The translations under genes were made by a program, and so were the position numbers. The notes under the pieces are model-generated. The model made no database searches, had not been told where the DNA came from, and saw only the letters and a list, made by a program, of their open reading frames with translations. Below, piece after piece: positions 1,281-46,329 of a stretch of 64,000 nt of DNA (position 1 is the first letter of the stretch; each line of letters starts with the position of its first letter). Origin of the DNA: an uncultured Bacillota bacterium. Its GTDB lineage: Bacteria; Bacillota_I; Bacilli_A; RFN20; CAG-449. The stretch spans positions 30,328 through 94,327 of the forward strand of contig CABUOQ010000002.1 in assembly GCA_902493275.1 (NCBI GenBank). The letters are read 5' to 3'.

Positions 1281-2135
1281 TTACTGTAATTTTGTCCGTA
1301 TGTTTTTTCTATATTTTCCCGCTGATACTCCAACATATTTTTTAAATACGCGTGTAAAATAATTATAGTCATTAAATCCTACTAAATAAGTTAATTCCAC
1401 TAAAGAACAATCACTTTCTTTTAAAATCTCTTTAGCTTTTTCAATTCTTTTAAACTTTACGTATTCAGATACTCCCATACTTAAATATTTATCTGCTTTT
1501 GTATAAAGTAATGTTCTACTAATATGCAAAGCTTTAGCGATATCATTCACATTTAATTTAGGATTTAAAATATTATTATCGATAAAGCAATCAATCTCAT
1601 TTAAAAACTTTTCTTTTTGTATTGAAAGCATCTTCTCACTTATCGCATATTTAGCTAACGCTAATAAAATAGTCGACATGCTTTTTAAACGCGTTTCTTC
1701 AACATATTCTATCTCAGACAATGCTTTTTTTAATTCATCAACATTATTCGTCATATAATTTAATTCTTTAAAACATTGATTTCTTTGTTCTTTATTTTTT
1801 ATATCACTTATTTGACCAAACATAATAAAGCCTACGATGGAACCATCAATTTTTAGATTAATCATTGCTTCAACCAACTTTGAATGGCAATGGTAAATAT
1901 TTAATTCATCGCTTTTTAGACATTTTAAAAACGATTCTTCATTCGATTTCGAGCATCTTTTCCTACCATTTTCATCTTTTTGTATTATTTCACAAAAACG
2001 ACAATTATGTGGAGGATAAGAGATAATCTCTTTATAAGATGTATCAAAAATTACAATTCTAACTCCAGTTAGAACATAGAAGCTTTTTAAAAGGTTTAGC
2101 AATTTTTCATAATTAAATTTAAGTTTCATCGACAT
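1281..2135 (-). CDS. AraC-family transcriptional regulator with an N-terminal Cys-containing PocR-like sensory domain.
   Basis: The C-terminus carries an AraC HTH (LVELTYLVGFNDYNYFTRVFKKYVGVSAGKYRKN). The N-terminal about 150 aa have a conserved Cys/His pattern (CRFCEII...HCHSKL) typical of PocR domains. It overlaps the upstream gene end by 17 nt. Confidence 0.6.
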   Translation of the reverse strand: MSMKLKFNYEKLLNLLKSFYVLTGVRIVIFDTSYKEIISYPPHNCRFCEIIQKDENGRKRCSKSNEESFLKCLKSDELNIYHCHSKLVEAMINLKIDGSIVGFIMFGQISDIKNKEQRNQCFKELNYMTNNVDELKKALSEIEYVEETRLKSMSTILLALAKYAISEKMLSIQKEKFLNEIDCFIDNNILNPKLNVNDIAKALHISRTLLYTKADKYLSMGVSEYVKFKRIEKAKEILKESDCSLVELTYLVGFNDYNYFTRVFKKYVGVSAGKYRKNIRTKLQ

Positions 2136-4404
2136 ATATACATCTATAATCTTTCGGGTAATAAATACCTAGTGAGTCGTCGCCATTATTAATTAATTTA
2201 ACTTCTTCATAATCTCCAACTTTAATTATTAACTCGCCTTTTTCTTTTAGATGTTCTTTTTTCAAATAGATAACTTTATTTTCTGAATCAATTCTTACCA
2301 AAGAGAATATTGCTTGGCAAAAAATAACTAAAATACAACTTGTCAATCCGTGATTTAAAGAAGCAAATACCGTATCATGTTCCCATAAAGTTCCTGTTAA
2401 TTCCGCCATTTTATAAAAATAAGAGATACTTTCGTCGGCAACTTCAACAAGATGATTATACTTCAAAAATATAAACAATCGCAAATAATCACCTATTAAT
2501 ACATTAGATTTATAAATTTCAGGGTATACTTTTTCATAATCTCGTGTTGGTCCGAAAAACTTTAATAAATTTTCAAATAAACTCGGATAATTTTTTTTAT
2601 TAGCAATATCAAAATAAAATGCATAATATTGACAAGTCTCAGTAATATTATTTGTTAATTCAAACTCACCATTATCATTACGGATCATATTATCAACAAA
2701 GAATGTGCCATTATAAGCATATTTTTGAATAGTTTTAATTAGTTTATGCCCTTTTTCTATCAGCGAATTATCGTTTAATAATTCTCCAGCACATATTAAC
2801 ATCTTACTATAAACCATATTGGAAGGAAAATTAATACCTTTAATGAATTCATCATCGTTAGCCTTAGACCATTCAATAAAAATCCATCCTTGAAGATTTT
2901 CTAATAAGCCAAGTTCATTTTCAAAATTTTTAAAATAGTCCAAAAGCATTTTAACTTTTGGTAAAGATTTGTCAATTAATATCTTATCTCCTGTTCTTTG
3001 ATAATAATTTTTCAATTCTAAAACATACCACATCGACCAATTTGGAATAAAATTACCATCAGGGAATTCTCCTGGATAACACATTGGGATCATATTTTTA
3101 GGTAATGTCGACATATTTTCCGCTAGAGCATAATTTTCTAAAAAATTGCGCTCTACAATGTTTTTATTAGTCAAAAGATATTCACTCATCGACGTAAAAT
3201 AGGAATCAAAAAGCCAACCTGCTCTTTCTCTCGATGGGCAATCGGTTAGAATATCGACGCTATTTTGTGCAAATGTTGAAACAGCTGCATCACAGATAGC
3301 TTGGATTCTTTTATTTTCAAATTCATATTTAAAACCATCAATAATAGTCTCATATAATCTTAAAGAAACATTATGGACTTTTATTTCTCCTTTAGCAATT
3401 ACTAAACGTAAATATTTAATGGTATATGGTTCAAAGCAAAGGTGATAAAGTCTTCCTTTTTTTATTTCATAAGAAACGATATTTTGCGTGGTATTACGAT
3501 AAAACTTTATGCTAAGTGGCACTTCTTTTCCGCATGAAGAATCAACTTCATCAAAAATAAAATATATTTCACTATCTCTCAGACATTCAATTTCAAATTC
3601 AATAAATCCGGTTTTAGACTTATCTAATTCATAAGTAATAAACGTTCCTTTTTTTAATTTGTCTATCGAATTATCAAGTGAATATTCAAGTTTTGAAATA
3701 TAGTCATTTGGATTAACTTCCCATTCATCAATTGGAAAAATTTTTAGATAATCCAGCAACATATAGCGATCGCGATAAGGCTTTTTATTTCGATTAAACT
3801 TAAATGTTCCTTTCTCTATCTGCTTAAATAATATATTAGGAAAAGTTTGATAAACTACATTTTTATTAAGATATTGTTTATGCCTAAAAATATCACATTT
3901 AACTTCCTCTAATGGATTAATTTTTCCCAATAAAAAATCTTTAAAGCTAAAATCAAAATGATACGATTCTGAAAAAGTTCTTTGAAAAGAAAAGCGCGAT
4001 ACCTTCACATAACGAGTTTTATTCAAATAACATTTAAAATCGTTATCATTAGATGTATACGCGATAACTTTGTTTCTTGTAAAAATTTCACAAACTAAAA
4101 AAGGCTCAGCACTTGAAAAGTACATTGAATTACAGCCACTAGCATAGTGTTCAATAATTATATAATGTTCACCTTTATCAAGTTCATAAGTATCAACTCT
4201 ATAAAACCTTTTAGCGGCTCTTGATGGTCCATATCCCATCAATTTACCATTATCAAATAATCTATATAATTCATTGGCCGTAATATTGATTTTAGCTTTT
4301 TCAGTCAAATTAATTCTTTGGGCAAAGAACAAAGAAATATTCATTTGTTCTAAATATTTAGTTGGATATATTGGTTTAGCTTTTTTAAAAAATTTATTTA
4401 ACAT
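2119..4404 (-). CDS. Alpha-L-rhamnosidase, GH78-like, cytoplasmic.
   Basis: It contains the GH78 catalytic-domain hallmark DCPSRERAGWLFD (DxPxRERxGW) and has no signal peptide. The track ORF extends to 4476, but the ATG at 4402-4404 (MLNKFFKKAK) is the only in-frame start with an RBS (AAGGTG); the ATGs at 4476, 4428 and 4344 have none. Start set to 4404. Confidence 0.7.
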   Translation of the reverse strand: MLNKFFKKAKPIYPTKYLEQMNISLFFAQRINLTEKAKINITANELYRLFDNGKLMGYGPSRAAKRFYRVDTYELDKGEHYIIIEHYASGCNSMYFSSAEPFLVCEIFTRNKVIAYTSNDNDFKCYLNKTRYVKVSRFSFQRTFSESYHFDFSFKDFLLGKINPLEEVKCDIFRHKQYLNKNVVYQTFPNILFKQIEKGTFKFNRNKKPYRDRYMLLDYLKIFPIDEWEVNPNDYISKLEYSLDNSIDKLKKGTFITYELDKSKTGFIEFEIECLRDSEIYFIFDEVDSSCGKEVPLSIKFYRNTTQNIVSYEIKKGRLYHLCFEPYTIKYLRLVIAKGEIKVHNVSLRLYETIIDGFKYEFENKRIQAICDAAVSTFAQNSVDILTDCPSRERAGWLFDSYFTSMSEYLLTNKNIVERNFLENYALAENMSTLPKNMIPMCYPGEFPDGNFIPNWSMWYVLELKNYYQRTGDKILIDKSLPKVKMLLDYFKNFENELGLLENLQGWIFIEWSKANDDEFIKGINFPSNMVYSKMLICAGELLNDNSLIEKGHKLIKTIQKYAYNGTFFVDNMIRNDNGEFELTNNITETCQYYAFYFDIANKKNYPSLFENLLKFFGPTRDYEKVYPEIYKSNVLIGDYLRLFIFLKYNHLVEVADESISYFYKMAELTGTLWEHDTVFASLNHGLTSCILVIFCQAIFSLVRIDSENKVIYLKKEHLKEKGELIIKVGDYEEVKLINNGDDSLGIYYPKDYRCIYVDET

Positions 4405-29390: not shown

Positions 29391-31595
29391 CTAATTATAT
29401 AATTTCTTTATCTTAAAATGATTGCTCAATAAAGTTTTATTTCCATATTCTGAATTTTCAAATTCAACTTCGATTAATTTATCCGATAAGACCTTTTTTA
29501 CCACTCCCACGCCAAATTGTTCATGAGACAACTTATCACCAACATACCATTTATCAACTCCATTAGTTTTATTAATAGCTGGAGCGACATTCACATTTAC
29601 TTTTTTATTATTTAGATTTATTTTTAACGGATTAATATATTTTGATTTAATTTGACTATAGTTTTTAACATTAATACCGGCCTCTTTTAAGAATTGTGAA
29701 GGTCTTAAATAACCGCTATTAACATAAGAGAAATCTTGATTACAAGTGATATATAATTTCTTTTTAGCTCTAGTTATTGCCACATAAGCTAATCTTCTTT
29801 CCTCTTCAATTCCTTGGGCACGTTCATCTATCGCTCTTTTAGAAGGGAAGACATCTTGATTAAACCCATAGATAAATACACTATCAAATTCCAATCCTTT
29901 AGCGGTATGAACAGTCATTAAAGAAACATAATTACCTTCATTTATTTCATCTGTAGATGACTGTAACACGGCATTAGTTACAAAATCTTCAAAACTAGCA
30001 TCCTTATTAGCGGTGAAGAATAAGCTTATAGTTCCCATCAATTCTTTGACGTTATCTACTCTATCATCTCCATCTTCTTCTTTTTTTAAGTAAGAATAAT
30101 ATCCGATTCTCTCTAAGAAAGCATTAATCAATTCTCGAAATTCACTGCTTTTATTCTTTTGTAATAGTTCCTTAGTTTTTTCGATTTCTTCTACCATCTT
30201 AGTTAAAGCATTAACTTTAGTGGTATTTAATTCTATTTTATCACTATTTTCTTTAATCAATAAGTATAAACTAACCCCATATTTATCTGCATTCTCTTTT
30301 AATTTATCTAAGCTTGTTGGCCCAATATTTCTTTTAGGAACATTAATAATTCTCTCCAAAGATTGATCGTCCAAAATATTAATAAAGATATTTAAATATG
30401 AAATGACATCTTTAATTTCACGTCTTTGATAGAATTTTAATCCTCCAAATAAACGATAAGGAATTCTTCTAAGAGCAAATTGACTTTCAATTTCACGGGT
30501 TAAATAGTTACTGCGATATAAAACGGCAAATGAGTTATATGTCGCTTTATGATTTTTAACCAATTCATCAATTGTACTTGCTACATATGAAGCTTCCTCA
30601 CCAACTGTTCTCGCATTTATAAAAGTTATTTCCTGTCCATCTGGGTTAACCGCAAATAAATCTTTTTTTATTCGGTCTAAATTATTATCAATTAATCGAT
30701 TCGCACAAGTTAAAATATTTTTACTTGAGCGATAATTATTATGCATAATAATAGTTTCAACATGTGCGCCTTTAAAAAAACTATTTATTTTATTTTCAAG
30801 ATCTAACATGATTTTATTATTTGCACCACGCCAAGTATATATTGTTTGATCAGGATCACCTACGACATATAGATTCGTATCCTTATTCATCAATAGCGAA
30901 ATCAAATAAAATTGTACATCATCGATATCTTGAAACTCATCGACCAAAATATGTTTATATTTTTTAGAAACATTCTCTTTAATACCATTTCTCGTATCTT
31001 CAAGAATCTCTATCGACTTTAAAAGTAAGTCGTCAAAATCTAACGAAGCCGTCTTTTTCAAAACAGCGGTATATTCCTTAAAATAGCCCAAGAATTCATT
31101 TATCAATGGATTAGGATAATGTGTGCCTTCTAAATCTTTAAATTGCAAGCCTTCATTCTTTTTACTTCCTATCCAAGATAGACATTCTTTTATCTGTGGA
31201 TCATTTTTGGCCTTACCATGACCAACAAAAATATTTTTCATAATTTGACGTTGATCATCTTCATCAATAATTGTAAAATTTCTTGGATAATCTATAACTT
31301 CTGCATATTTTCTCAAAAATTTTGCGCACCAAGAATGGATAGTACTTAAGTCCATGTATTCACTACCTGGAATTAATTTATTCACTCGATCTTTAATTTC
31401 TTTTGCTGCCTTATTGGTAAAAGTGATACCTAATATTTGATATGGCATAATACTCTTTTGAGAAATAAGATACGCTATACGATAAGTAAGTACCCTAGTT
31501 TTACCAGATCCTGCTCCAGCAATTACCTTGATATATTGTTTATCACAAGTCACTCCTTGTAATTGTTCCTCATTTAAATCTTCTTTAAAATTCAT
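29391..31595 (-). CDS. pcrA: ATP-dependent DNA helicase PcrA (UvrD/Rep family).
   Basis: Walker A GAGSGKTRVLTYRIAYLI, helicase motifs DEFQDIDDVQF, YRSN and VHTAKGLEFDSVFI, 734 aa. It is positioned upstream of gatCAB as in Bacillus, but no ligA lies between them here. Confidence 0.85.
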   Translation of the reverse strand: MNFKEDLNEEQLQGVTCDKQYIKVIAGAGSGKTRVLTYRIAYLISQKSIMPYQILGITFTNKAAKEIKDRVNKLIPGSEYMDLSTIHSWCAKFLRKYAEVIDYPRNFTIIDEDDQRQIMKNIFVGHGKAKNDPQIKECLSWIGSKKNEGLQFKDLEGTHYPNPLINEFLGYFKEYTAVLKKTASLDFDDLLLKSIEILEDTRNGIKENVSKKYKHILVDEFQDIDDVQFYLISLLMNKDTNLYVVGDPDQTIYTWRGANNKIMLDLENKINSFFKGAHVETIIMHNNYRSSKNILTCANRLIDNNLDRIKKDLFAVNPDGQEITFINARTVGEEASYVASTIDELVKNHKATYNSFAVLYRSNYLTREIESQFALRRIPYRLFGGLKFYQRREIKDVISYLNIFINILDDQSLERIINVPKRNIGPTSLDKLKENADKYGVSLYLLIKENSDKIELNTTKVNALTKMVEEIEKTKELLQKNKSSEFRELINAFLERIGYYSYLKKEEDGDDRVDNVKELMGTISLFFTANKDASFEDFVTNAVLQSSTDEINEGNYVSLMTVHTAKGLEFDSVFIYGFNQDVFPSKRAIDERAQGIEEERRLAYVAITRAKKKLYITCNQDFSYVNSGYLRPSQFLKEAGINVKNYSQIKSKYINPLKINLNNKKVNVNVAPAINKTNGVDKWYVGDKLSHEQFGVGVVKKVLSDKLIEVEFENSEYGNKTLLSNHFKIKKLYN

Positions 31596-31656
31596 AATAT
31601 TTCTTTCAACATTATGATTATATCATAATCACTCATTATTAAATATAAAATAAGAA

Positions 31657-32076
31657 TCAAAAATAATTTTGATAATGAGTAATTTCTTTTTGACCAATTA
31701 TTTCTTCTTTAACCATTTTATTTTCAATTATAAATAAAGTAGGTACAAAATGAATTTTAATATCTAGATAATTCTTTAATTCCACATTACTTTTATCAAA
31801 ATCAACCATAAAATCAGCATTTTTTACATCAATATAATATAAATTGTGATTTAAAGAGGGCTTTTTTTTAATAAAAAAGACTTTTACATTGCGACATGAT
31901 AAACATGAATCTAAATAAAAAAGGACATAATATCTTTCTTCTTTTTGCAAAAAAATATTTTCAATATCAATTATATTTTCATCATGTACAACCGCCTCAT
32001 TATTTTTAAGATTACATCCAAACATAAGCAAAACTATTATTCCTAAAAGCAATATCTTCATTATTCTTCTCTCCAT
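31657..32076 (-). CDS. Thioredoxin-fold lipoprotein (extracytoplasmic thiol-disulfide oxidoreductase-like).
   Basis: Lipobox LMFGC, CxxC motif (YLDSCLSCRNV) and thioredoxin cis-Pro motif (HFVPTLFIIEN). Confidence 0.45.
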   Translation of the reverse strand: MERRIMKILLLGIIVLLMFGCNLKNNEAVVHDENIIDIENIFLQKEERYYVLFYLDSCLSCRNVKVFFIKKKPSLNHNLYYIDVKNADFMVDFDKSNVELKNYLDIKIHFVPTLFIIENKMVKEEIIGQKEITHYQNYF

Positions 32077-32131
32077 TTAATAAATATTGACTTTTTAAGT
32101 AAATTAAAATCAAATGTGATAAAATAATTAT

Positions 32132-33043
32132 ATGAAAAGACATTTTGATATTAAGAACTTATGTTTAATTTCTATAATGACATCCATAAACATAATTTTT
32201 GTCATCTTAAATTTATTTTTTTCATTATTTTCGTTAATAATTTTAATTGGCATTCCTTTAGGTGCAACCATTATAAAACTTAAAGTTAGCACTAAATATC
32301 AATTAATCTATTTATTATCTTCAATTTTAATATGCAGTTTAATCGATTTTCAAATTTCTCTATTTTATATTATTCCTGGACTTATAACTGGGTTTATCTT
32401 TGGATTACTAGTAAATAAAAAAGTGCATGGATTTTTAATAATTATCATCACCTCACTTTTTAACATTATTCTTCAATGGTTATCATTCTATATAATTAAA
32501 TATTTATTTAATGCCGATATGATATCCTTCTTTGCCAATTTATTCGGTGTATCGTTATCTAGATTTAAAGATATTTATCTTGTATTTTTATTTTTAATAA
32601 GTTTGATTCAAATGCTTTTTTCTTATTTTGTAATTGAAGAAGAAATAAAAAAATTTAATTATAGTATCGATGAAAATTATTCAATATTCTATATAATTTT
32701 TTCAATGGGATTATTCTTTTCACTTTTAGGGATTATCGTTCTTATTAATAAATCTATCGGTTATTTATTTTCTTCGCTAGGAATGTTATTTAATGGTTAT
32801 CTGCTATTATATTTATTTAAATATCGTTGTAAATTAATTAATTATTCAATTATTGCTACTTATGTTTTAACTTTTTTCATCAGTCTATCCATTTTCAATA
32901 AAATAAATGATATTAGTTTATTATTTACATTTTTTTCTCTTACATCTTCTTTAAATGGTGTTATATTTATAATATACGTAACTATAATAAGAAAAGAAAA
33001 AATTACTTCTTTACTATTTAATAAAATAGATAAAAAGAGATAA
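32132..33043 (+). CDS. Polytopic membrane protein (about 8 TM), unknown function.
   Basis: Highly hydrophobic 303-aa ORF with ATG at 32132. It is the first gene of a translationally coupled trio. Confidence 0.4.
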   Translation: MKRHFDIKNLCLISIMTSINIIFVILNLFFSLFSLIILIGIPLGATIIKLKVSTKYQLIYLLSSILICSLIDFQISLFYIIPGLITGFIFGLLVNKKVHGFLIIIITSLFNIILQWLSFYIIKYLFNADMISFFANLFGVSLSRFKDIYLVFLFLISLIQMLFSYFVIEEEIKKFNYSIDENYSIFYIIFSMGLFFSLLGIIVLINKSIGYLFSSLGMLFNGYLLLYLFKYRCKLINYSIIATYVLTFFISLSIFNKINDISLLFTFFSLTSSLNGVIFIIYVTIIRKEKITSLLFNKIDKKR

Positions 33044-33061
33044 TACTAACTTAGGAGCCTT

Positions 33062-33331
33062 ATGATTAAATTATTTAACCTTTTCAAATATGGATTTATC
33101 ACTATCTTTACATCTCCCCTATGGATATTATTTTTTATCTATAGCATTTTAAAATGCTTAGTATTATTTATTTATAATTTATTTAAAAATATTATTTTAT
33201 TTTTCTGTGGTAAAGAGATATTTTTCACTAAAGAAGATAAAGCAATTGAAATTTTAAAAGTCAAAGAATCAGAAGATTTAGAAAAGAAAAAACTGGAGGC
33301 ATTAAATGATGCTGAACAACTCACTAATTAA
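33062..33331 (+). CDS. Small membrane protein (one N-terminal TM plus a charged helix), unknown function.
   Basis: ATG at 33062 with RBS AGGAG. It lies 19 nt after the previous stop and overlaps the next gene. Confidence 0.35.
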   Translation: MIKLFNLFKYGFITIFTSPLWILFFIYSILKCLVLFIYNLFKNIILFFCGKEIFFTKEDKAIEILKVKESEDLEKKKLEALNDAEQLTN

Positions 33332-33932
33332 GATAGTTCTTTCCGAACGCGATAAAAAAATTCTTGTAATCATCTTTTTGGTTTTTCTTTTGCTTGTTCT
33401 TCTTTTTGGTATTTTAAATCGCTTATTAAATTCATATATGAAAAAAGAAGGAAAAAAAATCGATCAATATCTTGCTGGATATGTTAAATATAAATTTGTT
33501 AATAACACTAAAGAATACTGCAAAATCGGTTTTCAAAAAAATCAACTTCTTTTGTTTAAACAGCTTCTTTTTCCAACGATTTTAGCAACCATAAGTTTAA
33601 TTGCCTTTGCTATTTTTTGTTCAATTCGCGATTTAAAATGGGATTATATCGGTCAAGTTTATGCGGATATGTTTTTTAAATTAAGCGCTCCAACAACTAA
33701 AATATTTGGTATAACTGTCTTCTCAAGTTGGCCTCATATCGTTCCTGGAAGTATTGTTTTTCATGGAGATTTAGATGGAATTGTCGCCTATATTTTTCTT
33801 ATATGTCTAATCGTAAGTGCAATTACAATAATATTATCCACCATCAAATTTATCGCTCGTGAAAATAGAATAAAAAAGACAAGTAAAAAGATTTTTGAAA
33901 CAAATCTTGACTTGCCTATTAACATTGATTAA
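33306..33932 (+). CDS. Membrane protein (3-4 TM), unknown function.
   Basis: ATG at 33306 with RBS TGGAGG. It overlaps the upstream gene by 26 nt. Confidence 0.4.
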   Translation: MMLNNSLIKIVLSERDKKILVIIFLVFLLLVLLFGILNRLLNSYMKKEGKKIDQYLAGYVKYKFVNNTKEYCKIGFQKNQLLLFKQLLFPTILATISLIAFAIFCSIRDLKWDYIGQVYADMFFKLSAPTTKIFGITVFSSWPHIVPGSIVFHGDLDGIVAYIFLICLIVSAITIILSTIKFIARENRIKKTSKKIFETNLDLPINID

Positions 33933-33938
33933 TTAAAT

Positions 33939-35015
33939 TTATAAATTTCTATATATATTTTCTAACGTTTCATTAGGATTAATTATCAAAGATAATTTTC
34001 CTTTTTGATTTAAACTCAAATATGGTTTTACAACAAAGGTAGTATCATCACCATTTAAGCAACTCCCGCTACTAGTTAAATATCCACCCAATTCGCGAAT
34101 ATATTCATTTTTATCTTGTTTAGAAATTATAGAATCTCCACCATATAATTCACCATGTTGACCTTTAGATAGGTAATATGAAGATGTAATGCCCTCATTA
34201 TTTTCATCTAAATATAAAAAGTAATTTGCACTTTGTAAAAAAGCATCTTGTAATGAAGTGGCTACATAATATGTTAATCCTTCTAATTTATTTTCAAATT
34301 TTTCTACTCCATTACCCATAATAACAAAATCATAGTATGTCTTCGGTAATATTGCATTATCGCTAACAGAAATAACTAAGCATGGAGATGAATCCTTACT
34401 CTTAATTTGTATCTTTTTTCTTTTACCAGCTTTATCTGGCAAAGAATAAATTGTCTCACTTATCCCTTCAGCGGAACGAATCTTTAAAGCTCGATGAGGA
34501 TTATAAATATCTTCAATATTAATCAATTCTGAGAATAACAAATAATCACCTTTTTCTAAAGACGATAGTTTTATTCCCCCATCTAAATAGTTACCTTTTA
34601 CTTCTTTAGTAATATCTAATCCGCTGATATATTTAGATGAGACATTAATTAATGATATTTGATTGTATGAAGAATATGATGCCACATCTATTCGTCGATT
34701 ACTTAAATGTAAATAATCTCCATATATCCCATAATCATATACATCTTCAGTGAGATAATTATCATTTTCATCTTTTAAAACATATTTATTATAAAGTGTT
34801 AAACTATCTTTTCGCGAATTACCATTTAAAGAAATTATATCAGTATCTTCGACTTTCTTAGATACTCTATCAATAATTGTCGAAACTAATTCAAAGGCAA
34901 AAAAACCAATAAGAAGAACATCAATAGCTATTAATAGTCCTCTTATTCTTCTTTTTGATTTCACTTTCCTAATAAGATTTTCTTCTTGAGTTGAATTTTG
35001 AATTTCTTCCGCCAT
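33939..35015 (-). CDS. Bitopic membrane protein with a large extracytoplasmic domain, unknown function.
   Basis: N-terminal cytoplasmic K/R tail and a single TM (RGLLIAIDVLLIGFFAFELV), followed by an approximately 300-aa domain. Convergent with the membrane-protein trio. Confidence 0.4.
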   Translation of the reverse strand: MAEEIQNSTQEENLIRKVKSKRRIRGLLIAIDVLLIGFFAFELVSTIIDRVSKKVEDTDIISLNGNSRKDSLTLYNKYVLKDENDNYLTEDVYDYGIYGDYLHLSNRRIDVASYSSYNQISLINVSSKYISGLDITKEVKGNYLDGGIKLSSLEKGDYLLFSELINIEDIYNPHRALKIRSAEGISETIYSLPDKAGKRKKIQIKSKDSSPCLVISVSDNAILPKTYYDFVIMGNGVEKFENKLEGLTYYVATSLQDAFLQSANYFLYLDENNEGITSSYYLSKGQHGELYGGDSIISKQDKNEYIRELGGYLTSSGSCLNGDDTTFVVKPYLSLNQKGKLSLIINPNETLENIYRNL

Positions 35016-35022
35016 AAGACAC

Positions 35023-36417
35023 CTAATAATCTAAAGATTTATATGTTCGAGGGAATGGTTCAACATCACGGATATTATTCATTCCTGATATATACATCAA
35101 AAATCTTTCAAAGCCTATACCAAATCCAGCGTGTTTACATCCACCATATTTTCTTAAATCAAGATACCATTGATAGTCATCCATATTTAATTTGCTTTTT
35201 TCCATCTTTTCTTTTAAAATATCGTAGTTTTCTTCTCTTTGTGAACCACCTACTAATTCACCAACACCAGGAACTAGTAAATCACAAGCAGCAACTGTCT
35301 TGCCATCTTTATTTCTCTTCATATAAAATGATTTTATCTCTTCAGGATAATTAATTAAAAATACTGGTCCTTTTACTACCACTTCTGTAATGTATCTTTC
35401 ATGTTCAGATTCAAGATCCTTGCCCCAATAAATATTATCATCTTCAAATTTAACACCTTCGCTTTTAGCTTTAAGCAAAATATTAATTGCCTCAGTATAT
35501 TCCATTTTAACAAAAGGTGATTTCAAAACATGATTTAATCGATCCATTAAGGTCTTATCAATCATTGTCGAAAAGAAATTCATTTCTTCAGGAGCGTTTT
35601 CTAGACAATATTGAATGCAATACTTAACGCAATCTTCAATTAAATCCATATCATCATCTAAATCAGCAAAAGCGATTTCTGGTTCAATCATCCAAAATTC
35701 AGAGGCATGAGTTCTTGTATTTGACTTTTCACTTCTAAATGTTGGCCCAAAAGTATATACATCTCTAAAGGCCATAGCAAAAGCTTCAACATGAATTTGT
35801 CCTGATCCAGATAATAAAGTCTTCTTATTAAAATATGAATCTGGATCTTTTTTACCATCACCAGTAATGACATGGAACATATCATCACCTTCACAAGATA
35901 TTCCCGTTAATAATGGAGTGTGGACATAAACAAATCCCTGATCTTGGAAGAATTCATGAATAGCCATAGATAATACGCTTCTTAATCTAAATACCGCATT
36001 AAAGGTATTTGTACGTGGACGAAGATGTGCTATCTCACGAAGATATTCAAATGAATGTCTTTTTTTCTGTAAAGGATAAGAAGCATCACAATCACCAATA
36101 AGAACAAATTCTTGAAGTTGTATCTCAAAAGGTTGTTTTGCTTGAGGAGTTAAAACAAATTTTCCTTTGACTGAAATTGAACATCCGGTCAAATGTTTAC
36201 TAATTTCCTCAAAATTAGAAACAATGTTTTTATCATATACTATTTGAGCATTTTTAAAGTATGTTCCATCATTTAATTCTATAAAGCCGATAGATCCATT
36301 ATTTCGATTGGTTCTAATCCATCCTTCTAATCCAACAAAATCTAAAGAATCTCTTTGGATTTGGTCTCCATAATTACATGTCTCATAGAGTTCTCTAACA
36401 GTTTTAAATTCGTACAT
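35023..36417 (-). CDS. asnS: Asparagine--tRNA ligase (class IIb).
   Basis: Class II motif-2-type block FRSEKSNTRTHASEFWMIEPEIAF, the C-terminal GGCKHAGFGIGFERF, and the 464-aa length fit AsnRS rather than AspRS. Confidence 0.85.
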   Translation of the reverse strand: MYEFKTVRELYETCNYGDQIQRDSLDFVGLEGWIRTNRNNGSIGFIELNDGTYFKNAQIVYDKNIVSNFEEISKHLTGCSISVKGKFVLTPQAKQPFEIQLQEFVLIGDCDASYPLQKKRHSFEYLREIAHLRPRTNTFNAVFRLRSVLSMAIHEFFQDQGFVYVHTPLLTGISCEGDDMFHVITGDGKKDPDSYFNKKTLLSGSGQIHVEAFAMAFRDVYTFGPTFRSEKSNTRTHASEFWMIEPEIAFADLDDDMDLIEDCVKYCIQYCLENAPEEMNFFSTMIDKTLMDRLNHVLKSPFVKMEYTEAINILLKAKSEGVKFEDDNIYWGKDLESEHERYITEVVVKGPVFLINYPEEIKSFYMKRNKDGKTVAACDLLVPGVGELVGGSQREENYDILKEKMEKSKLNMDDYQWYLDLRKYGGCKHAGFGIGFERFLMYISGMNNIRDVEPFPRTYKSLDY

Positions 36418-36603
36418 ACAATTTTTTCTCCTATTTCTTAAATTATACTATATTTAATAAAAAATTAAATATAATCTCTATTTTACACCACAAAAATTTA
36501 TTAAATTTATAAGTAATTCGATTATAACACCATATAAACAAAATAAAATATTTATTTAGTATTTTATCGTTTTTTCTCTATTAATATTTTAGAGGCTATA
36601 ATT

Positions 36604-37515
36604 ATGAAACCCATACTTTTTATTTGCGCTATAAGTATTAATCTTCTATCATCCTATAAAGATGTTACCCCACCATCGATTGATGGGCCCTATGGTTTAT
36701 CTTATGCCTATTATCATGGAGTTAGTAAAGAAGATATAATTAAACAATTTATATTTGAAGACAATGTCGATGATGTAAAGAATCTAGAAATATATTTTTC
36801 TCATGAATTAATTTTAGATTCACCAAATCATAATTTTCAAACAATATATTGTAAAGATACTTCAGGCAATATCGCACATTTAACTTTTGACTTAGATATA
36901 TATGACGATCTTCCACCTAAAATATATTGCCCTGATAATATTATTTTTAATCCATTATCATCGGTAGACTATCAGCAAATAGTCGATGAATGCTATGCAA
37001 TCGATGATGGTGACGGAAGAACTAAAATTGAAGTTATAAATGAAAATTATTCATCGCATATTCATCAAAAAGGTACATATTTTATTTCTTTAAAAAGTAG
37101 TGATAATTCCAATAACACCGCTTATAAAACTATCAATATCACCATCAAAGATGATACCAATGATATTTATTTTATGAATGATATAACTATTAAAGTCTCT
37201 AGCTATAAATATGTTAATCCTTATGAAATGATCGATATTTTAAAAAATAATTATTTTTTAGAAAATATAAATTGTTTAAACGCAGATTATATTAATAGCA
37301 ACTATCAAAACTTTTATCAAACAATAGGAACATATCCGACCACATTAAGATTAACCATTAACAATCAACGAATGACTATTTTAGAAATAAGAATCAATAT
37401 TGTGGTCACTGAAGAAATAGAAATAATTAATAAAAAAAATGAAAGTATATCCTTAATAGAAATTTTACTTTCAATTTTAAATTATCTAAAAAAATTATTT
37501 CAAAATATATTTTAA
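36604..37515 (+). CDS. Secreted protein with two DUF5011/HYR-like Ig-fold repeats and a C-terminal hydrophobic helix.
   Basis: Signal peptide MKPILFICAISINLLSS. Repeat signatures: DVTPPSIDGP...DTSGNIAHLTFDLDI and DDLPPKIYCP...SSDNSNNTAYKTINITI. Confidence 0.4.
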   Translation: MKPILFICAISINLLSSYKDVTPPSIDGPYGLSYAYYHGVSKEDIIKQFIFEDNVDDVKNLEIYFSHELILDSPNHNFQTIYCKDTSGNIAHLTFDLDIYDDLPPKIYCPDNIIFNPLSSVDYQQIVDECYAIDDGDGRTKIEVINENYSSHIHQKGTYFISLKSSDNSNNTAYKTINITIKDDTNDIYFMNDITIKVSSYKYVNPYEMIDILKNNYFLENINCLNADYINSNYQNFYQTIGTYPTTLRLTINNQRMTILEIRINIVVTEEIEIINKKNESISLIEILLSILNYLKKLFQNIF

Positions 37516-42243: not shown

Positions 42244-43029
42244 CTATATTTTTATTTCATCAACTAAATTTAAACGCATTGATAATGCCATTTTATATCC
42301 ATCATCATTTAAATATGTCGTAATATCATTAGGCGAATGGGCATCGATGCCAATAATTACTTTGGCCTTCATTTTTTCTACCATTTTCCAAAAAGGCAAA
42401 TATGGGTATCCATATCTAAACTCTTTACCTTTATTTTGTTTTCCACGTCGAAAACAAGCTAAATTAAATTCTAATGGAATATCATATTCAATTGAAGCAT
42501 GTATTATCTCTTTAGCTACTTTTTTAGCTGTTGCATCCCATTTATAATATGAATCCATATAATAATCTGGATGCGCAATATAAGAAAATAGTCCCGTTTT
42601 CATTCCTTCTATTAAAGTATCTTTATACTCTAAAAGGTTTTTCTTCTCAGTGCATTTAGAAAAGAAAAACCTGATAATTCCATTTTCCAAAGTGCAGTGA
42701 TTTCCCATAATTAAATAATCTACTTTACCTGATTCTTTTAAATCGCGATAATAAGAAAAGTACTCTTTTATCGGTTCCGCTTCAAATCCAAGTAGAATAT
42801 TTATTCGATCTTTGTATTTATCTTTTAATGAACGTATTGAGGAAAAATATCCTTCTTTAGCGTCAAATTCTCCTCGCATATTAGGTTGATGAATATGCTC
42901 AAGCATAACATGATCAGAAAAACCAATCGTATTTAAGCCTAGAGCAATTGCCTCTAAGACATATTCTTCATCATTACCGATTGCATGACCACATCTAAAA
43001 GTATGTGTGTGATAATTATTTCTAATCAT
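42244..43029 (-). CDS. PHP-family metal-dependent phosphoesterase (histidinol-phosphatase-like).
   Basis: N-terminal YHTHTFRCGHA and a later GFSDH motif typical of the PHP domain. Confidence 0.55.
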   Translation of the reverse strand: MIRNNYHTHTFRCGHAIGNDEEYVLEAIALGLNTIGFSDHVMLEHIHQPNMRGEFDAKEGYFSSIRSLKDKYKDRINILLGFEAEPIKEYFSYYRDLKESGKVDYLIMGNHCTLENGIIRFFFSKCTEKKNLLEYKDTLIEGMKTGLFSYIAHPDYYMDSYYKWDATAKKVAKEIIHASIEYDIPLEFNLACFRRGKQNKGKEFRYGYPYLPFWKMVEKMKAKVIIGIDAHSPNDITTYLNDDGYKMALSMRLNLVDEIKI

Positions 43030-43759
43030 AAAATACCTCCATTAAATATAAACCTTGAGGATCAACTTTATATGGGACAGAATCAATATAACCTTCCTTT
43101 AAGTGATCAATAATATAATCCAAGTTTATTTTTTCTCTTCCTAGCATCAATATAGTAGCGATGATTTGTCTAACCATATATCGTTTAAACCCTGAGCCAA
43201 CTATATCAAATATCAACATATCATTTTCTTGTTTTAAATGAAAAGAATAAATAGTTTCCTCAAAATTAGTATCAAATTCACGAATAGAGCAAAAATTAAT
43301 AAAATTATGTTTTCCTAAAAATATATTCAGTCCTTTTTCCATCAAGTCTAAATTTAACTTGTAATGATATATCAAAGCATATCTTATAAAAAAGGGATTG
43401 TCCTTCAAGCTAACACGATATTGATACCATTTTTTTCTTGCACTATAACGAGCATGAAAGTCTTCATTAACCTTTTCTAATGAAATAATGTTGATATCTT
43501 TAGGTAACATCATATTCATCGAATAGCGCAACTTATCTAAATCATAATTATCAAAACTAATATCAAAATGAAAGACCTGACCCAAAGCATGCACTCCTTT
43601 ATCTGTCCTTCCAGCGCCATAAATTTTAATTGAATTATTAAAAATTCGATTTAGGACTTTATTAAGTTCCCCTTGAATAGATATTTCTTTTTCTTTTTTT
43701 TGGATTTGGAAACCATAGTATCGGCTTCCATCATAGCTTAAAGTGGCTTTTATTCTCAT
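43022..43759 (-). CDS. truA: tRNA pseudouridine(38-40) synthase.
   Basis: MRIKATLSYDGSRYYGFQIQ... and GAGRTDKGVHALGQV (catalytic Asp). Follows ecfT as in Bacillus. Confidence 0.85.
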   Translation of the reverse strand: MRIKATLSYDGSRYYGFQIQKKEKEISIQGELNKVLNRIFNNSIKIYGAGRTDKGVHALGQVFHFDISFDNYDLDKLRYSMNMMLPKDINIISLEKVNEDFHARYSARKKWYQYRVSLKDNPFFIRYALIYHYKLNLDLMEKGLNIFLGKHNFINFCSIREFDTNFEETIYSFHLKQENDMLIFDIVGSGFKRYMVRQIIATILMLGREKINLDYIIDHLKEGYIDSVPYKVDPQGLYLMEVFYD

Positions 43760-43761
43760 AA

Positions 43762-44643
43762 TTAAAACGGCAATATAATTATATTTTGATTACATAAAAC
43801 AGATAAAGTTATTAATCCACTTAATAACAATAATGAAAATACAAATGAAAAACTATCGCGCATATGCCATTTAAGCAATCGATACCTCGTTCTTTTTTGA
43901 CTAGGATCATATCCTCGAGCTTCCATCGCATTTGCTAATTCATCACTTCTTTGGAAAGATGAAATAAAAAGTGGAATGATTAAAGATACGATTGCTCGAA
44001 CTTTTTCTTTTAGCTTTCCATCTTGAAAATCCACTCCTCGAGAGGATTGTGCTTTCATAATTCTATCAGTTTCATCTAATAATGTTGGAATAAAACGTAG
44101 CGCTAAAGAGATAGTCATAGCTATCTCATGAACTGGAAGATGAACTACTTTAAACGGTGTTAAAAACCATTCTAAAGCATAAGTTAAATCCATTGGTTTA
44201 GTCGTTGACGTCAATATTAAAGTCAATGATATCATTAACGCTAGACGAATAAAAATATAAAATGTATTAATAAAAGCTGAAAAATAAATTGTCCAATTAA
44301 TTCCTGGAATTGTGAAATGGTCAATACTTTCATTCAACCAAGGAATATAAATCATTATTGATTCTTTAATTGTAAATAAATTAATAATGAATAAAAACAA
44401 CATCATGAACCACATCATCTTAAGTTGTTTAAACAACTGTTTTAAAGTAATATGAGCAATGCGCATTAATATATATATAAATACAATTAATCCACCATAT
44501 ATTGCGAAATTAAACCATGTTGAATTATATCCTAGAAATATAATTACCATTAGGCAAATCATCGAAATAATTTTTGTTCTAGGATCTAACCGATGTAAAA
44601 ATGTATTATATGGCGCATATCTTCCTAATGAAATATTAGCCAT
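43762..44643 (-). CDS. ecfT: Energy-coupling factor transporter transmembrane component.
   Basis: Polytopic, with the conserved C-terminal ARG..R-type region (MEARGYD). Sits downstream of two ecfA genes. Confidence 0.75.
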   Translation of the reverse strand: MANISLGRYAPYNTFLHRLDPRTKIISMICLMVIIFLGYNSTWFNFAIYGGLIVFIYILMRIAHITLKQLFKQLKMMWFMMLFLFIINLFTIKESIMIYIPWLNESIDHFTIPGINWTIYFSAFINTFYIFIRLALMISLTLILTSTTKPMDLTYALEWFLTPFKVVHLPVHEIAMTISLALRFIPTLLDETDRIMKAQSSRGVDFQDGKLKEKVRAIVSLIIPLFISSFQRSDELANAMEARGYDPSQKRTRYRLLKWHMRDSFSFVFSLLLLSGLITLSVLCNQNIIILPF

Positions 44644-45493
44644 TTTTAGCCTCCTTTATTTGAGATACTAAAGTTTCAATATTTTTAACTTTAGTTAAAT
44701 CAATATTTAAACCATTTTGCTTTAATTCTTTCGCATATGACAAAACACGTGGCTCATGAATATTATACTTTTCATTAAGATTATCTTGAGAAAATAAATC
44801 CAAAGGCTTACCATCAAAAATTATTTTTCCCTTAGACATAACTATTGCTCTAGTAGAATATTCTAAAACGTTCTCCATATTATGACTAATCATGATAATG
44901 GTCTTACCTTTTTCATGTATTTTCTTAAATAAATCCATCATCTCTTTTTCACCACGTGGATCAAGCCCAGCAGTAGGCTCATCCAAAATCAATATTTGAG
45001 GATCTAAAGCAATAATACCCGCAATTGCAACACGACGTTTTTGTCCACCAGAAAGTTCAAATGGTGAGCGATTAAATAAACTGTCATCAATACCAACTAA
45101 ATTCAACGCTTCTTTTGCAACTTTCATTGCCTCTTCTTCTTTTATTCCAAAATTTTTAGGACCAAACATCACATCTTTAATCACTGTGTCCTCAAAAAGT
45201 TGATATTCCGGAAATTGAAATACTAATCCCGCATATTTTTTTAATTTTTTTAATTCTTTTGTTTTCTTTTCTTTGTAATCAATGACAAAATTACCGACAT
45301 AAATAGTTCCCTTACTTGGTCGTAATAAAGAATTAATCAATTGTCCCAATGTAGATTTACCTGATCCAGTATGTCCAATTAAAGAAACAAATTCATGGTC
45401 TTCAATAATAAGATTAATATCCTCTAACGCTCTTGACGCAAAAGGAGATCCTTCTTGATATGTATAACTAACATTATCTAATTTGATTGACAT
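44636..45493 (-). CDS. ecfA2: Energy-coupling factor transporter ATPase (second ATPase, EcfA2/EcfA').
   Basis: Walker A GHTGSGKST, signature LSGGQKRRVAIAG, Walker B LILDEPTAGLD. Confidence 0.8.
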   Translation of the reverse strand: MSIKLDNVSYTYQEGSPFASRALEDINLIIEDHEFVSLIGHTGSGKSTLGQLINSLLRPSKGTIYVGNFVIDYKEKKTKELKKLKKYAGLVFQFPEYQLFEDTVIKDVMFGPKNFGIKEEEAMKVAKEALNLVGIDDSLFNRSPFELSGGQKRRVAIAGIIALDPQILILDEPTAGLDPRGEKEMMDLFKKIHEKGKTIIMISHNMENVLEYSTRAIVMSKGKIIFDGKPLDLFSQDNLNEKYNIHEPRVLSYAKELKQNGLNIDLTKVKNIETLVSQIKEAKNG

Positions 45494-46329
45494 AAAATAT
45501 CCTTTACCTCTTTTAAATTTTTTGCGTCTTTAATATCTACATTCGCTTCATGAAGCATTTTTATAACTTTGGATTCAAATGGAAGACTCAATCCTATACT
45601 TAATAATTGTTCTTCATTTATAAAAACATTACTTGGTATATCATTAAACATTACTTTACCTTTATTTAATACAATGCAACGATTGGAAAGAAAAGCTTCA
45701 TCAATATCATGAGTAATCGACACAATAGTTAATTCTTGATTTTCTTTTTTTAATTTATGAATCAAAGAAACTATTTCTTCTTTTCCACGTGGATCAAGCA
45801 TCGCTGTAGCTTCATCAAAAATTAAAATTTTAGGATTCATCGCTAAAACTCCCGCAATTGCAACACGTTGTTTTTGACCACCACTTAATGAAGAAGGCTC
45901 TTTATCTAAAAATTCTTTCATATTGACTTTAGCGGAAAATTTATCAATTATTTCATCCATATCCTCATGCTTAACACAACGATTTTCAAGGCCAAAAGCA
46001 ATATCATCACGAACAGTAGCACCGATAAACTGATTATCTGGATTTTGAAAAACAATTCCAATATTTTTTCTTATTTGACGAATTATATCCTCGTTATCTT
46101 GATTATATGTCTTATCGAAAATGGTAATTTGTCCTTCATCTGGTGCTAGTAAGCCAGCAATGAGCTTAGCTAAAGTCGATTTTCCTGAACCATTGTGTCC
46201 AATAATAGTGACATATTCTCCTTGACTAATATTCAAAGAAATATTATCTAAAGTTAACTCTTTAGAGGAATTTTCATCTTTATTTTTGTTATATGAAAAA
46301 GTTAAATTTTTAATTTCTATCGCATTCAT
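45478..46329 (-). CDS. ecfA1: Energy-coupling factor transporter ATPase (EcfA1).
   Basis: Walker A GHNGSGKST, signature LSGGQKQRVAIAG, Walker B LIFDEATAMLD. Confidence 0.8.
   Translation of the reverse strand: MNAIEIKNLTFSYNKNKDENSSKELTLDNISLNISQGEYVTIIGHNGSGKSTLAKLIAGLLAPDEGQITIFDKTYNQDNEDIIRQIRKNIGIVFQNPDNQFIGATVRDDIAFGLENRCVKHEDMDEIIDKFSAKVNMKEFLDKEPSSLSGGQKQRVAIAGVLAMNPKILIFDEATAMLDPRGKEEIVSLIHKLKKENQELTIVSITHDIDEAFLSNRCIVLNKGKVMFNDIPSNVFINEEQLLSIGLSLPFESKVIKMLHEANVDIKDAKNLKEVKDILCQSN

Follow-up and report, generated by a model that had tools for sequence, protein, structure and literature searches.

A DUF2232 protein with an ECF S-component-type fold heads a conserved three-gene operon in uncultured Bacilli and may belong to a multipartite S-unit

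Between pcrA and asnS, an uncultured Bacillota bacterium carries five genes for envelope proteins, and the question raised by this locus is whether they form one functional module and, if so, of what kind. The genes lie on contig CABUOQ010000002.1, in a stretch of 64,000 nucleotides that was analysed as a whole (the window). A first-pass annotation of the window had described them as a single cluster of no recognisable enzymatic or transport family that resembled extracytoplasmic redox or bacteriocin-accessory modules. All five ORFs, here called T, A, B, C and D, were found in the ORF list of the window at the coordinates first given, and their description as an envelope or membrane gene cluster was supported. 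T (31657-32076, minus strand) encodes a thioredoxin-fold lipoprotein of 139 aa; it precedes pcrA, which is on the same strand, and is transcribed divergently from A, with an intergenic region at 32077-32131 between the two. A (32132-33043), B (33062-33331) and C (33306-33932) are on the plus strand and encode a polytopic DUF2232 (YybS-like) membrane protein of 303 aa, a small membrane protein of 89 aa and a 3-TM protein of 208 aa, respectively. D (33939-35015, minus strand), convergent with C, encodes a single-pass protein of 358 aa.

The gene B begins 18 nt past A, and the start of C overlaps B by 26 nt. As noted earlier, both have good ribosome binding sites, AGGAG for B and GGAGG for C, 7-8 nt 5' of the starts. 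The five genes do not make up one cluster or module, as had been supposed, but belong to three transcription units. Both T and D are on the minus strand; since T precedes pcrA and D starts 7 nt past the asnS stop, T was assigned to the pcrA unit and D to the asnS unit, and their tie to A-B-C is positional only. When profiles of the five proteins were used, the gene order pcrA-T / A-B-C / D-asnS was found to be kept in nearly all of 85 related loci, and orthologues of all five proteins in matching order and orientation were present in almost all of these loci, representing at least 69 species of uncultured Bacilli. The trio is thus conserved as a unit elsewhere, and the A-B-C cluster is real and conserved across the lineage beyond chance.

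The claim that none of the genes belongs to a recognisable family was incorrect for A. This protein matched Pfam DUF2232 (PF09991) with 40.7 bits (E 2.1e-10), above the gathering score of 27.8 bits, and 54 of 68 A orthologues matched the same family at E<=0.01. The alignment covered only profile positions 2-133 of 290, leaving the C-terminal half of A unaligned. Instead of the 8 TM helices given before, about 10 were predicted, in a 6 + 4 helix model: residues 1-175 form a six-helix core of the ECF S-component type, followed by four TM helices that are less conserved than this core. The best Foldseek match of A was TmRibU, with a weak E-value of 0.5. No credible match was obtained when profiles of A, C and D were searched against PDB sequences. 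The charge distribution of A agrees with an N-in/C-in topology. A small-x3-small motif in TM1, typically Ala-x3-Ala, faces EcfT in ThiT and other ECF systems. In A, TM1 carries a small-xxx-small motif in all 68 orthologues; it reads MA(L/I)MAAIN (AxxxA) in most of them and SIMTS (SxxxS) in the window. A therefore belongs to the DUF2232 family and has an S-component fold, which points to an ECF transporter and not to a redox or bacteriocin-accessory module. The copy of A in the window differs from the database copy by one residue (C222R).

Group-II S-components are normally encoded apart from the ecf operon and share an EcfA-EcfA'-EcfT module. Such a module was found in the window at 43762-46329 on the minus strand, 10.7 kb from A, in the order ecfA1 (45478-46329), ecfA2 (44636-45493) and ecfT (43762-44643), followed by truA (Pfam PseudoU_synth_1). 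Both ATPase genes matched Pfam ABC_tran and were named A1 and A2 from gene order, while ecfT matched Pfam CbiQ at 5.8e-42. YybS, which like A is about 300 aa long, shares with A the DUF2232 family assignment, the S-component-like fold and the presence of an EcfAA'T module in the same genome. They differ in that only the N-terminal half of A aligns to the DUF2232 profile, and in that A comes first in an operon that also encodes two dedicated small membrane proteins, whereas yybS sits with gdpP and rplI and no partners have been reported for it. According to one preprint, so far the only source that ties YybS to ECF transporters and cell-wall homeostasis, YybS is proposed to be the S-subunit of an ECF transporter in B. 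subtilis and S. aureus (bioRxiv 10.64898/2026.05.13.724699). The preprint reports that loss-of-function mutations in yybS, ecfA2 and ecfT led to the same suppressor phenotype, that YybS co-folded with EcfAA'T with an ipTM of 0.84, that DUF2232 domains occur in some cases as fusions with homologues of EcfA or EcfT, and that DUF2232/YybS proteins are essential in several bacteria (bioRxiv 10.64898/2026.05.13.724699).

We propose that A, B and C form a multipartite S-unit of a group-II ECF-type ABC importer resembling CbiM-CbiN, a reading to which we give about an even chance. The translationally coupled operon would then encode the substrate-capture (S) unit. A, as a divergent member of the DUF2232/YybS family, would supply the S-component fold with its first six helices, dock via the AxxxA face of TM1 onto the shared EcfA1-EcfA2-EcfT module and topple in the membrane upon ATP hydrolysis, as other S-components do. 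By analogy with YybS of B. subtilis and S. aureus, the substrate may be a cell-envelope-related metabolite.

Several features of A resemble those of the classic group-II S-components RibU, ThiT, FolT, BioY and BtuM, namely the N-in/C-in topology, the AxxxA-type TM1 and a gene located apart from the ecf operon. However, the identity of A to these proteins is only 6-16%, and A differs in having accessory subunits, no riboswitch and four additional TM helices at its C-terminus. The added helices and the two dedicated partners would also fit an ECF-independent membrane complex of A, B and C in which A is either a solitary transporter or a scaffold or sensor that serves envelope homeostasis, and in which the ATPase module takes no part. 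The distance between A and the ecf genes and the weak Foldseek E-value are consistent with this as well. Yet such a distance is normal for group-II S-components, the TM1 face is strictly retained, and in B. subtilis and S. aureus genetic and computational evidence ties the DUF2232 protein YybS to EcfA2 and EcfT. We consider an ECF-independent complex unlikely.

The two proteins encoded after A have no known relatives; neither is in Pfam or annotated. B begins with a TM hairpin at its N-terminus and has an acidic cytoplasmic tail whose length varies; it also carries the conserved motif FFxG..S....ED. Its orthologues were found in 72 loci, right after A. No credible Pfam or NCBIfam match, database name or fusion partner was found for B. 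A search for homologues of B beyond the lineage or in fused form returned 41 short unannotated proteins, and all three of those inspected were in the same synteny. C is predicted to be N-out/C-in with 3 TM helices; its cytoplasmic loop is helical and strongly basic, and its outside loop of about 50 aa has a conserved W-P...H motif. The COPI_assoc matches of B and the Pfam RELT matches of C (45 of 61 members) were short, of the TM type and far under the cut-offs, and were regarded as TM-segment noise. An EcfT-like nature of C, suggested by an 'IAR' motif, was rejected at an hhalign probability of 0.1, and neither B nor C resembled EcfT.

An S-type core with adjacently encoded small integral membrane proteins is also found in CbiM-CbiN, NikM-NikN and NikM-NikK-NikL. 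CbiM-CbiN is a bipartite S unit in which the extracytoplasmic loop between the TM helices of CbiN lies over the binding pocket (PMC7689651). No Pfam or NCBIfam match to CbiM/NikM, CbiN/NikN or NikK/NikL was obtained for A, B, C or their orthologues at E<=0.1-1, and B and C showed no similarity to CbiN, NikN, NikK or NikL, so the likeness is one of analogy only. Moreover, the Cbi and Nik systems are group-I transporters whose genes lie together with those for their T and A units, whereas here the ecf genes are located elsewhere. On this analogy, B and C may be lineage-specific small membrane subunits stoichiometric with A, with the hairpin protein B as a putative partner subunit and the outside loop of C placed over or beside the binding pocket of A, as CbiN is over CbiM. 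The more specific proposal of an undescribed tripartite ECF S-unit, consisting of a DUF2232 core and the new families B and C, fixed in the lineage as a core operon and using the C loop in substrate capture, is tentative, and we hold it to be possible but somewhat doubtful.

A-B-C would be a known transporter type in a new form and not a new kind of system. Part of what had been a hypothetical envelope cluster would be reassigned to a known transporter type, and T and the asnS-linked D are set apart as neighbours. B and C are two new protein families to describe. DUF2232/YybS proteins are widespread, and the operon with B and C offers new candidate subunits for them. If A-B-C is indeed a tripartite S-unit, dedicated accessory subunits can be required in the DUF2232/YybS branch of ECF transporters, a branch with a reported link to cell-wall homeostasis.

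The description of T as a thioredoxin-like lipoprotein was borne out. T has a lipobox Cys, CLSC and VPT. Among 48 orthologues, the CxxC and the cis-Pro never vary, and at least 90% carry the lipobox Cys. The start is probably the ATG at 32061 (134 aa); this start is called in the public assembly and is preceded by GGAG 9 nt upstream. The Pfam matches of T to Thioredoxin and Thioredoxin_2 were weak, and a T profile retrieved only Trx-fold chains from the PDB, so that T was classified as a thioredoxin-fold oxidoreductase at the superfamily level. T is distantly similar to PedC/BrcD: NCBIfam PedC_BrcD (TIGR01295) was matched by 39 of the 48 orthologues, with a best E of 2.3e-9 and all scores far under the 120-bit cut-off, and T of the window, at 23.1 bits, was not assigned to this family. 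The active site of the orthologues is mostly CxHC or CxYC. CxHC is typical of oxidising and isomerising members such as DsbA (CPHC) and PDI (CGHC). T shares with PedC/BrcD, PDI and DsbA the thioredoxin fold, the CxxC, the cis-Pro and an extracytoplasmic location, in its own case as a lipoprotein, but at about 110 aa it is no more than a minimal domain, it has CLSC in the window and it is not accompanied by bacteriocin genes. T would thus be an extracytoplasmic disulfide oxidoreductase lipoprotein of the CxHC type, a neighbour in the pcrA transcription unit.

For D, the single-pass topology with a large outside domain proposed earlier was in agreement with a basic N-terminus, an N-terminal anchor and a large C-terminal outside part. 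Conservation across the lineage is limited to the first 50 aa or so, which comprise the basic segment and the TM helix, while the ectodomain, roughly 300 aa in length and containing two conserved Cys, is restricted to the clade of the window. D may therefore be, as we picture it, a tail-anchored small membrane protein to which an ectodomain was added in this clade, and a neighbour in the asnS unit. The long form, with 84 representatives at 50% identity, contains no Pfam domain; a weak CBM3a-like match was found in residues 134-210 (E 0.005). A degenerate Amidase_3, suggested by eye from 'VISVSDN' and 'IRELGG', was rejected at hhalign probabilities of 0.1-0.8%.

Could T and its neighbours make up an extracytoplasmic redox module after all? 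T would then act on cysteines of clients of A-B-C, or A-B-C would handle redox equivalents of T in the manner of CcdA/DsbD or DsbB, with D as a substrate. The invariant active site of T and the two conserved Cys of D would suit such a role, as would the divergent arrangement of T and A, which in most species share an intergenic stretch of about 63 nt. After correction of evolutionary distances for pcrA and asnS, the partial correlation between T and the A-B-C proteins was 0.29-0.36, compared with 0.42-0.53 among A, B and C and 0-0.2 for D with A, B and C, values that are weak evidence. A, B and C, however, possess no conserved extracytoplasmic or membrane-embedded Cys pair through which they could be linked to T: the single near-invariant Cys of A is in a cytoplasmic loop and is replaced by Val in the window, 34 of 72 B orthologues lack Cys altogether, and the number in C varies from 0 to 6. 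Signatures of CcdA, DsbD, DsbB or VKOR were not detected with Pfam or NCBIfam, and none of the five proteins matched CcdA/DsbD, CPBP or LCP, the families named beforehand as possible assignments, in these databases at E<=1. In addition, T is missing from five loci (L005, L043, L065, L080 and L082) whose species retain A-B-C, and the D ectodomain is clade-specific whereas T is lineage-wide. The redox and bacteriocin interpretation is supported for T itself only, and a redox module comprising these genes is improbable.

It must also be considered that there is no functional unit, and that five unrelated lineage-specific membrane proteins have been kept adjacent by a pcrA-asnS region that was never rearranged. 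The flanking housekeeping genes pcrA and asnS are as syntenic as the cluster itself, the entire block being syntenic in every locus, and a second, independent genomic context was not found for any of the genes, so the co-occurrence of A, B and C may stem from descent in one lineage and not from selection for linkage. Nevertheless, A, B and C lie on one strand and all of their neighbours on the other, the three occur together in every locus of sufficient length, and B and C were never lost where A is present. In about 70 loci the median gap was 5 nt between A and B and -1 nt between B and C, and the tight spacing or overlap persists down to 20-30% identity. The A-B gap was interrupted by inserted genes once only (L064); the two genes inserted there have no credible Pfam family, one of them giving a sub-threshold DUF515 match. 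We regard mere adjacency as quite improbable.

The remaining reading, a bacteriocin maturation or immunity cassette in which T would be a disulfide isomerase of the PedC/BrcD type and the membrane proteins would act as immunity or accessory factors, draws on the sub-threshold PedC_BrcD matches but is largely refuted and hardly credible, as those scores are far too low, the lack of a precursor peptide and an ABC exporter noted in the first-pass annotation was confirmed at the locus, where a C39 peptidase is likewise missing, the genes hold a fixed core position between housekeeping operons in the species surveyed, unlike accessory bacteriocin loci, and PADLOC gave no defence-system match. A defence system was rejected on the same PADLOC result.

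The genes of vitamin S-components are often under riboswitch control. In Rfam searches of positions 31000-37000 no riboswitch or leader was found, and the T/A region is too short to hold a riboswitch, which counts against the S-unit reading. A scan for promoters and terminators gave a result at chance level. An extended -10-like element, TGaTAAAAT, is located at 32117-32125 and ends 6 nt 5' of the ATG of A, and A has no Shine-Dalgarno sequence; from these two features the mRNA of A is predicted to be leaderless, and probably is. When 50 orthologous T/A intergenic regions were aligned, TGnTAAAAT was kept just 5' of the ATG, and an inverted repeat of a T-run and an A-run was also seen.

The five-gene cluster between the housekeeping genes pcrA and asnS comprised T, encoding a thioredoxin-like lipoprotein (31657-32076, minus strand, 139 aa), the membrane-protein genes A (32132-33043, plus strand, 303 aa), B (33062-33331, plus strand, 89 aa) and C (33306-33932, plus strand, 208 aa), and D, encoding a single-pass surface protein (33939-35015, minus strand, 358 aa). 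All five ORFs claimed by the first-pass annotation were found at these coordinates, as were the overlap and ribosome-binding sites it described for the trio: the last 26 nt of B also belong to C, and the two are preceded by AGGAG and GGAGG, respectively. The window was AT-rich (G+C about 30% overall, 20-27% over the cluster), with genes mainly on the minus strand. T and pcrA share a strand, with T upstream at a distance of 61 nt, and only 7 nt separated the asnS stop codon from the start of D, also on the same strand. Strand and spacing therefore divide the five genes, previously read as one module, into three transcription units: T(-pcrA-gatCAB), A-B-C on the opposite strand, and asnS-D converging on C. 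A contig of metagenome-assembled genome GCA_964314975.1 (CAYCEF010000005.1) matched the window, with one amino acid difference in protein A.

The convergent C and D genes were separated by 6 nt in the window (33932-33939) and by a median of 8 nt, often overlapping, in related loci L014-L082; no terminator-like hairpin was predicted between the two genes. Between asnS and a PTS EIIC_2 gene was an ORF of 303 aa (36604-37515, plus strand) whose N-terminus resembled a signal peptide and which matched nothing in Pfam; it was kept in the closest relatives only (L001-L005), while L006 had a shorter 133-aa ORF there.

The intergenic region between T and A was 55 nt (70 nt with a shorter T) and had no Rfam match. 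It contained TGaTAAAAT at 32117-32125, followed by 6 nt and the ATG of A at 32132. Across about 50 species, TGnTAAAAT ended 6-9 nt before this ATG, and no Shine-Dalgarno sequence was present upstream of it. This conserved spacing and the missing Shine-Dalgarno sequence suggest that the A-B-C mRNA is probably leaderless and driven by an extended -10 promoter. In many species an inverted repeat of the form T-run/N4/A-run was located upstream of TGnTAAAAT, e.g. TTTTTTTCACAAAAAA in L017.

Homologues of A shared 23-48% identity, and their contigs carried the same arrangement as the window. Scanning one genome per GTDB species with an A profile yielded 69 loci from rumen, gut and lake samples, all in metagenome-assembled genomes labelled Bacilli, Erysipelotrichaceae, 'Coprobacillus sp.', Bacillales or Candidatus Fiminaster. 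Six-frame ORFs from every locus were queried with HMMs for T, A, B, C and the D N-terminus, and the order T(-) A(+) B(+) C(+) D(-) was recovered in nearly every sufficiently long locus. The envelope cluster is thus real and conserved, and the interpretation in the first-pass annotation is supported in part. The commonest pattern with flanks was gatA gatC pcrA T, A B C, D asnS. Three more contexts reached through B homologues had the same synteny. In the related loci the A-B gap had a median of 5 nt and the B-C gap a median of -1 nt, with frequent 1- or 4-nt overlaps, and translational coupling is therefore lineage-wide. The sole locus with an interrupted A-B junction was L064 (a MAG labelled Staphylococcaceae, ERP123703_co3_5), where a tandem pair of paralogues, each of about 179 aa, was inserted (1853-3057, plus strand). 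Both carried a CxxCxxC motif (CDECDIC) and neither had a credible Pfam match, one giving a sub-threshold DUF515 match only.

Protein A had been listed as lacking any recognisable family. This did not hold, since A scored 40.7 bits against Pfam DUF2232 (gathering score 27.8; profile positions 2-133 of 290), a family that points to ECF transport; 54 of 68 orthologues also matched at E<=0.01. The AlphaFold2 model of A had a mean pLDDT of 78, about 90 over residues 1-180, and consisted of six helices, after which came four modelled with lower confidence. Its top Foldseek match was TmRibU, at a probability of 0.99 and a target TM-score of 0.60, although with an E-value of 0.5. The S-like core was clearly better conserved than the C-terminal helices, and an AxxxA-type motif in TM1, mostly in the form MA(L/I)MAAIN, was present in 68/68 orthologues. 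Charge distribution supports a predicted N-in/C-in topology with 10 TM helices. At codon 52 (32285-32287), in the cytoplasmic TM2-TM3 loop, 64 of 68 orthologues had a Cys within a CKK.Y motif; it was replaced by Val in the window and also missing in the closest relative, L005.

In a 2026 preprint on B. subtilis chemical genomics, loss of yybS (DUF2232), ecfA2 or ecfT is reported to suppress beta-lactam sensitivity; YybS is described there as similar to S-subunits and as co-folding with EcfAA'T (ipTM 0.84), fusions of DUF2232 domains with homologues of EcfA or EcfT are reported for some proteins, and the YybS substrate is given as unknown (bioRxiv 10.64898/2026.05.13.724699). The window carried a canonical ecfA1-ecfA2-ecfT-truA module (43022-46329, minus strand) downstream of ribosomal protein genes, and ecfA1-ecfA2-ecfT would be the shared energising module for every S-component of this genome.

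No credible match was found for B or C in Pfam, NCBIfam, PDB sequences or folds, and database names gave nothing beyond 'hypothetical protein'. In B, some 65 aa at the N-terminus made up a conserved domain (M..FFK.FGKG, a TM hairpin containing an invariant Pro, FF.G.S...(D)LPED), followed by a variable, strongly acidic tail predicted to be cytoplasmic. C was a protein with three TM helices; its cytoplasmic helical loop was strongly basic (net charge about +9), its outside loop of about 50 residues held a short beta-hairpin and invariant P143 and H153, and a basic amphipathic helix lay at its C-terminus. The window B and C were short forms; most species outside its clade had long low-complexity C-terminal tails, acidic on B and N/Q/P-rich on C, bringing the proteins to as much as about 250 aa (B) and about 319 aa (C), e.g. 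L008 8917-10125, L012 3870-5150 and L064 3415-4374.

Given the observed family and fold of A, ECF module, operon structure and conservation, the best-supported model, to which we give an even chance, casts A as an S-type subunit of the shared ECF module and B and C as accessory membrane subunits. A would dock to EcfT and associate with B and C, which come from the same coupled transcript. In CbiM-CbiN, a bipartite S unit, the binding pocket lies beneath an extracytoplasmic loop of a small two-TM protein (PMC7689651), and the outside loop of C, which is conserved, is the most obvious part to play a comparable role. The likeness is one of analogy, not membership, as A-B-C showed no homology to CbiM, CbiN or Nik proteins. 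What is new here is that a DUF2232 protein of S type has two dedicated partner families, both of them new. They are candidates that can be tested for the YybS branch of ECF transporters, which is poorly understood, but the organisms are uncultured and the substrate class of A-B-C is inferred. That A-B-C instead forms a complex independent of ECF is unlikely.

A redox module involving T is quite improbable. The thioredoxin-like character of T was confirmed, CxxC and cis-Pro being invariant in the orthologue alignment. The T dipeptide between the cysteines was mainly xH or xY (CGHC 15 times, CSHC 11 times; CLSC in the window), which, with CPHC in DsbA and CGHC in PDI, points to an oxidising or isomerising enzyme. 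However, A, B and C had no conserved outside cysteines, the lone near-invariant Cys of A is on the cytoplasmic side and replaced by Val in the window, and no CcdA-, DsbD- or DsbB-like signature was found. Moreover, T belongs to another transcription unit and was lost in a few species keeping the trio (L005, L043, L065, L080 and L082). T has two in-frame ATGs (32059-32076 region). The downstream one at 32061, giving 134 aa, had GGAG 9 nt upstream, was annotated as the start in the public assembly and fitted orthologue starts better; the 139-aa ORF is probably over-extended.

Adjacency of the five genes by mere synteny is very unlikely. Synteny is just as strong for pcrA and asnS, so functional linkage has no independent genomic context to prove it, and the case for it comes from the operon structure and from B and C never being lost in the related loci. 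In a mirror-tree style test, with pairwise distances of pcrA and asnS controlled, partial correlations were 0.53 (A-C), 0.42 (A-B), 0.42 (B-C), 0.29-0.36 (T with A, B or C) and 0-0.2 (D with the others), lending weak support to A-B-C linkage. PedC_BrcD matched 39 of 48 T orthologues weakly, far under the cut-off, and a bacteriocin cassette is scarcely credible.

No family was found for the D ectodomain, apart from one weak CBM3a-like beta-sandwich match at residues 134-210 (E 0.005). In most species D was 45-70 aa, consisting of a basic N-terminal segment and one TM helix. Among the fetched loci, the 300-aa ectodomain was limited to the window's clade; in a large protein library the long form had 84 representatives at 50% identity.
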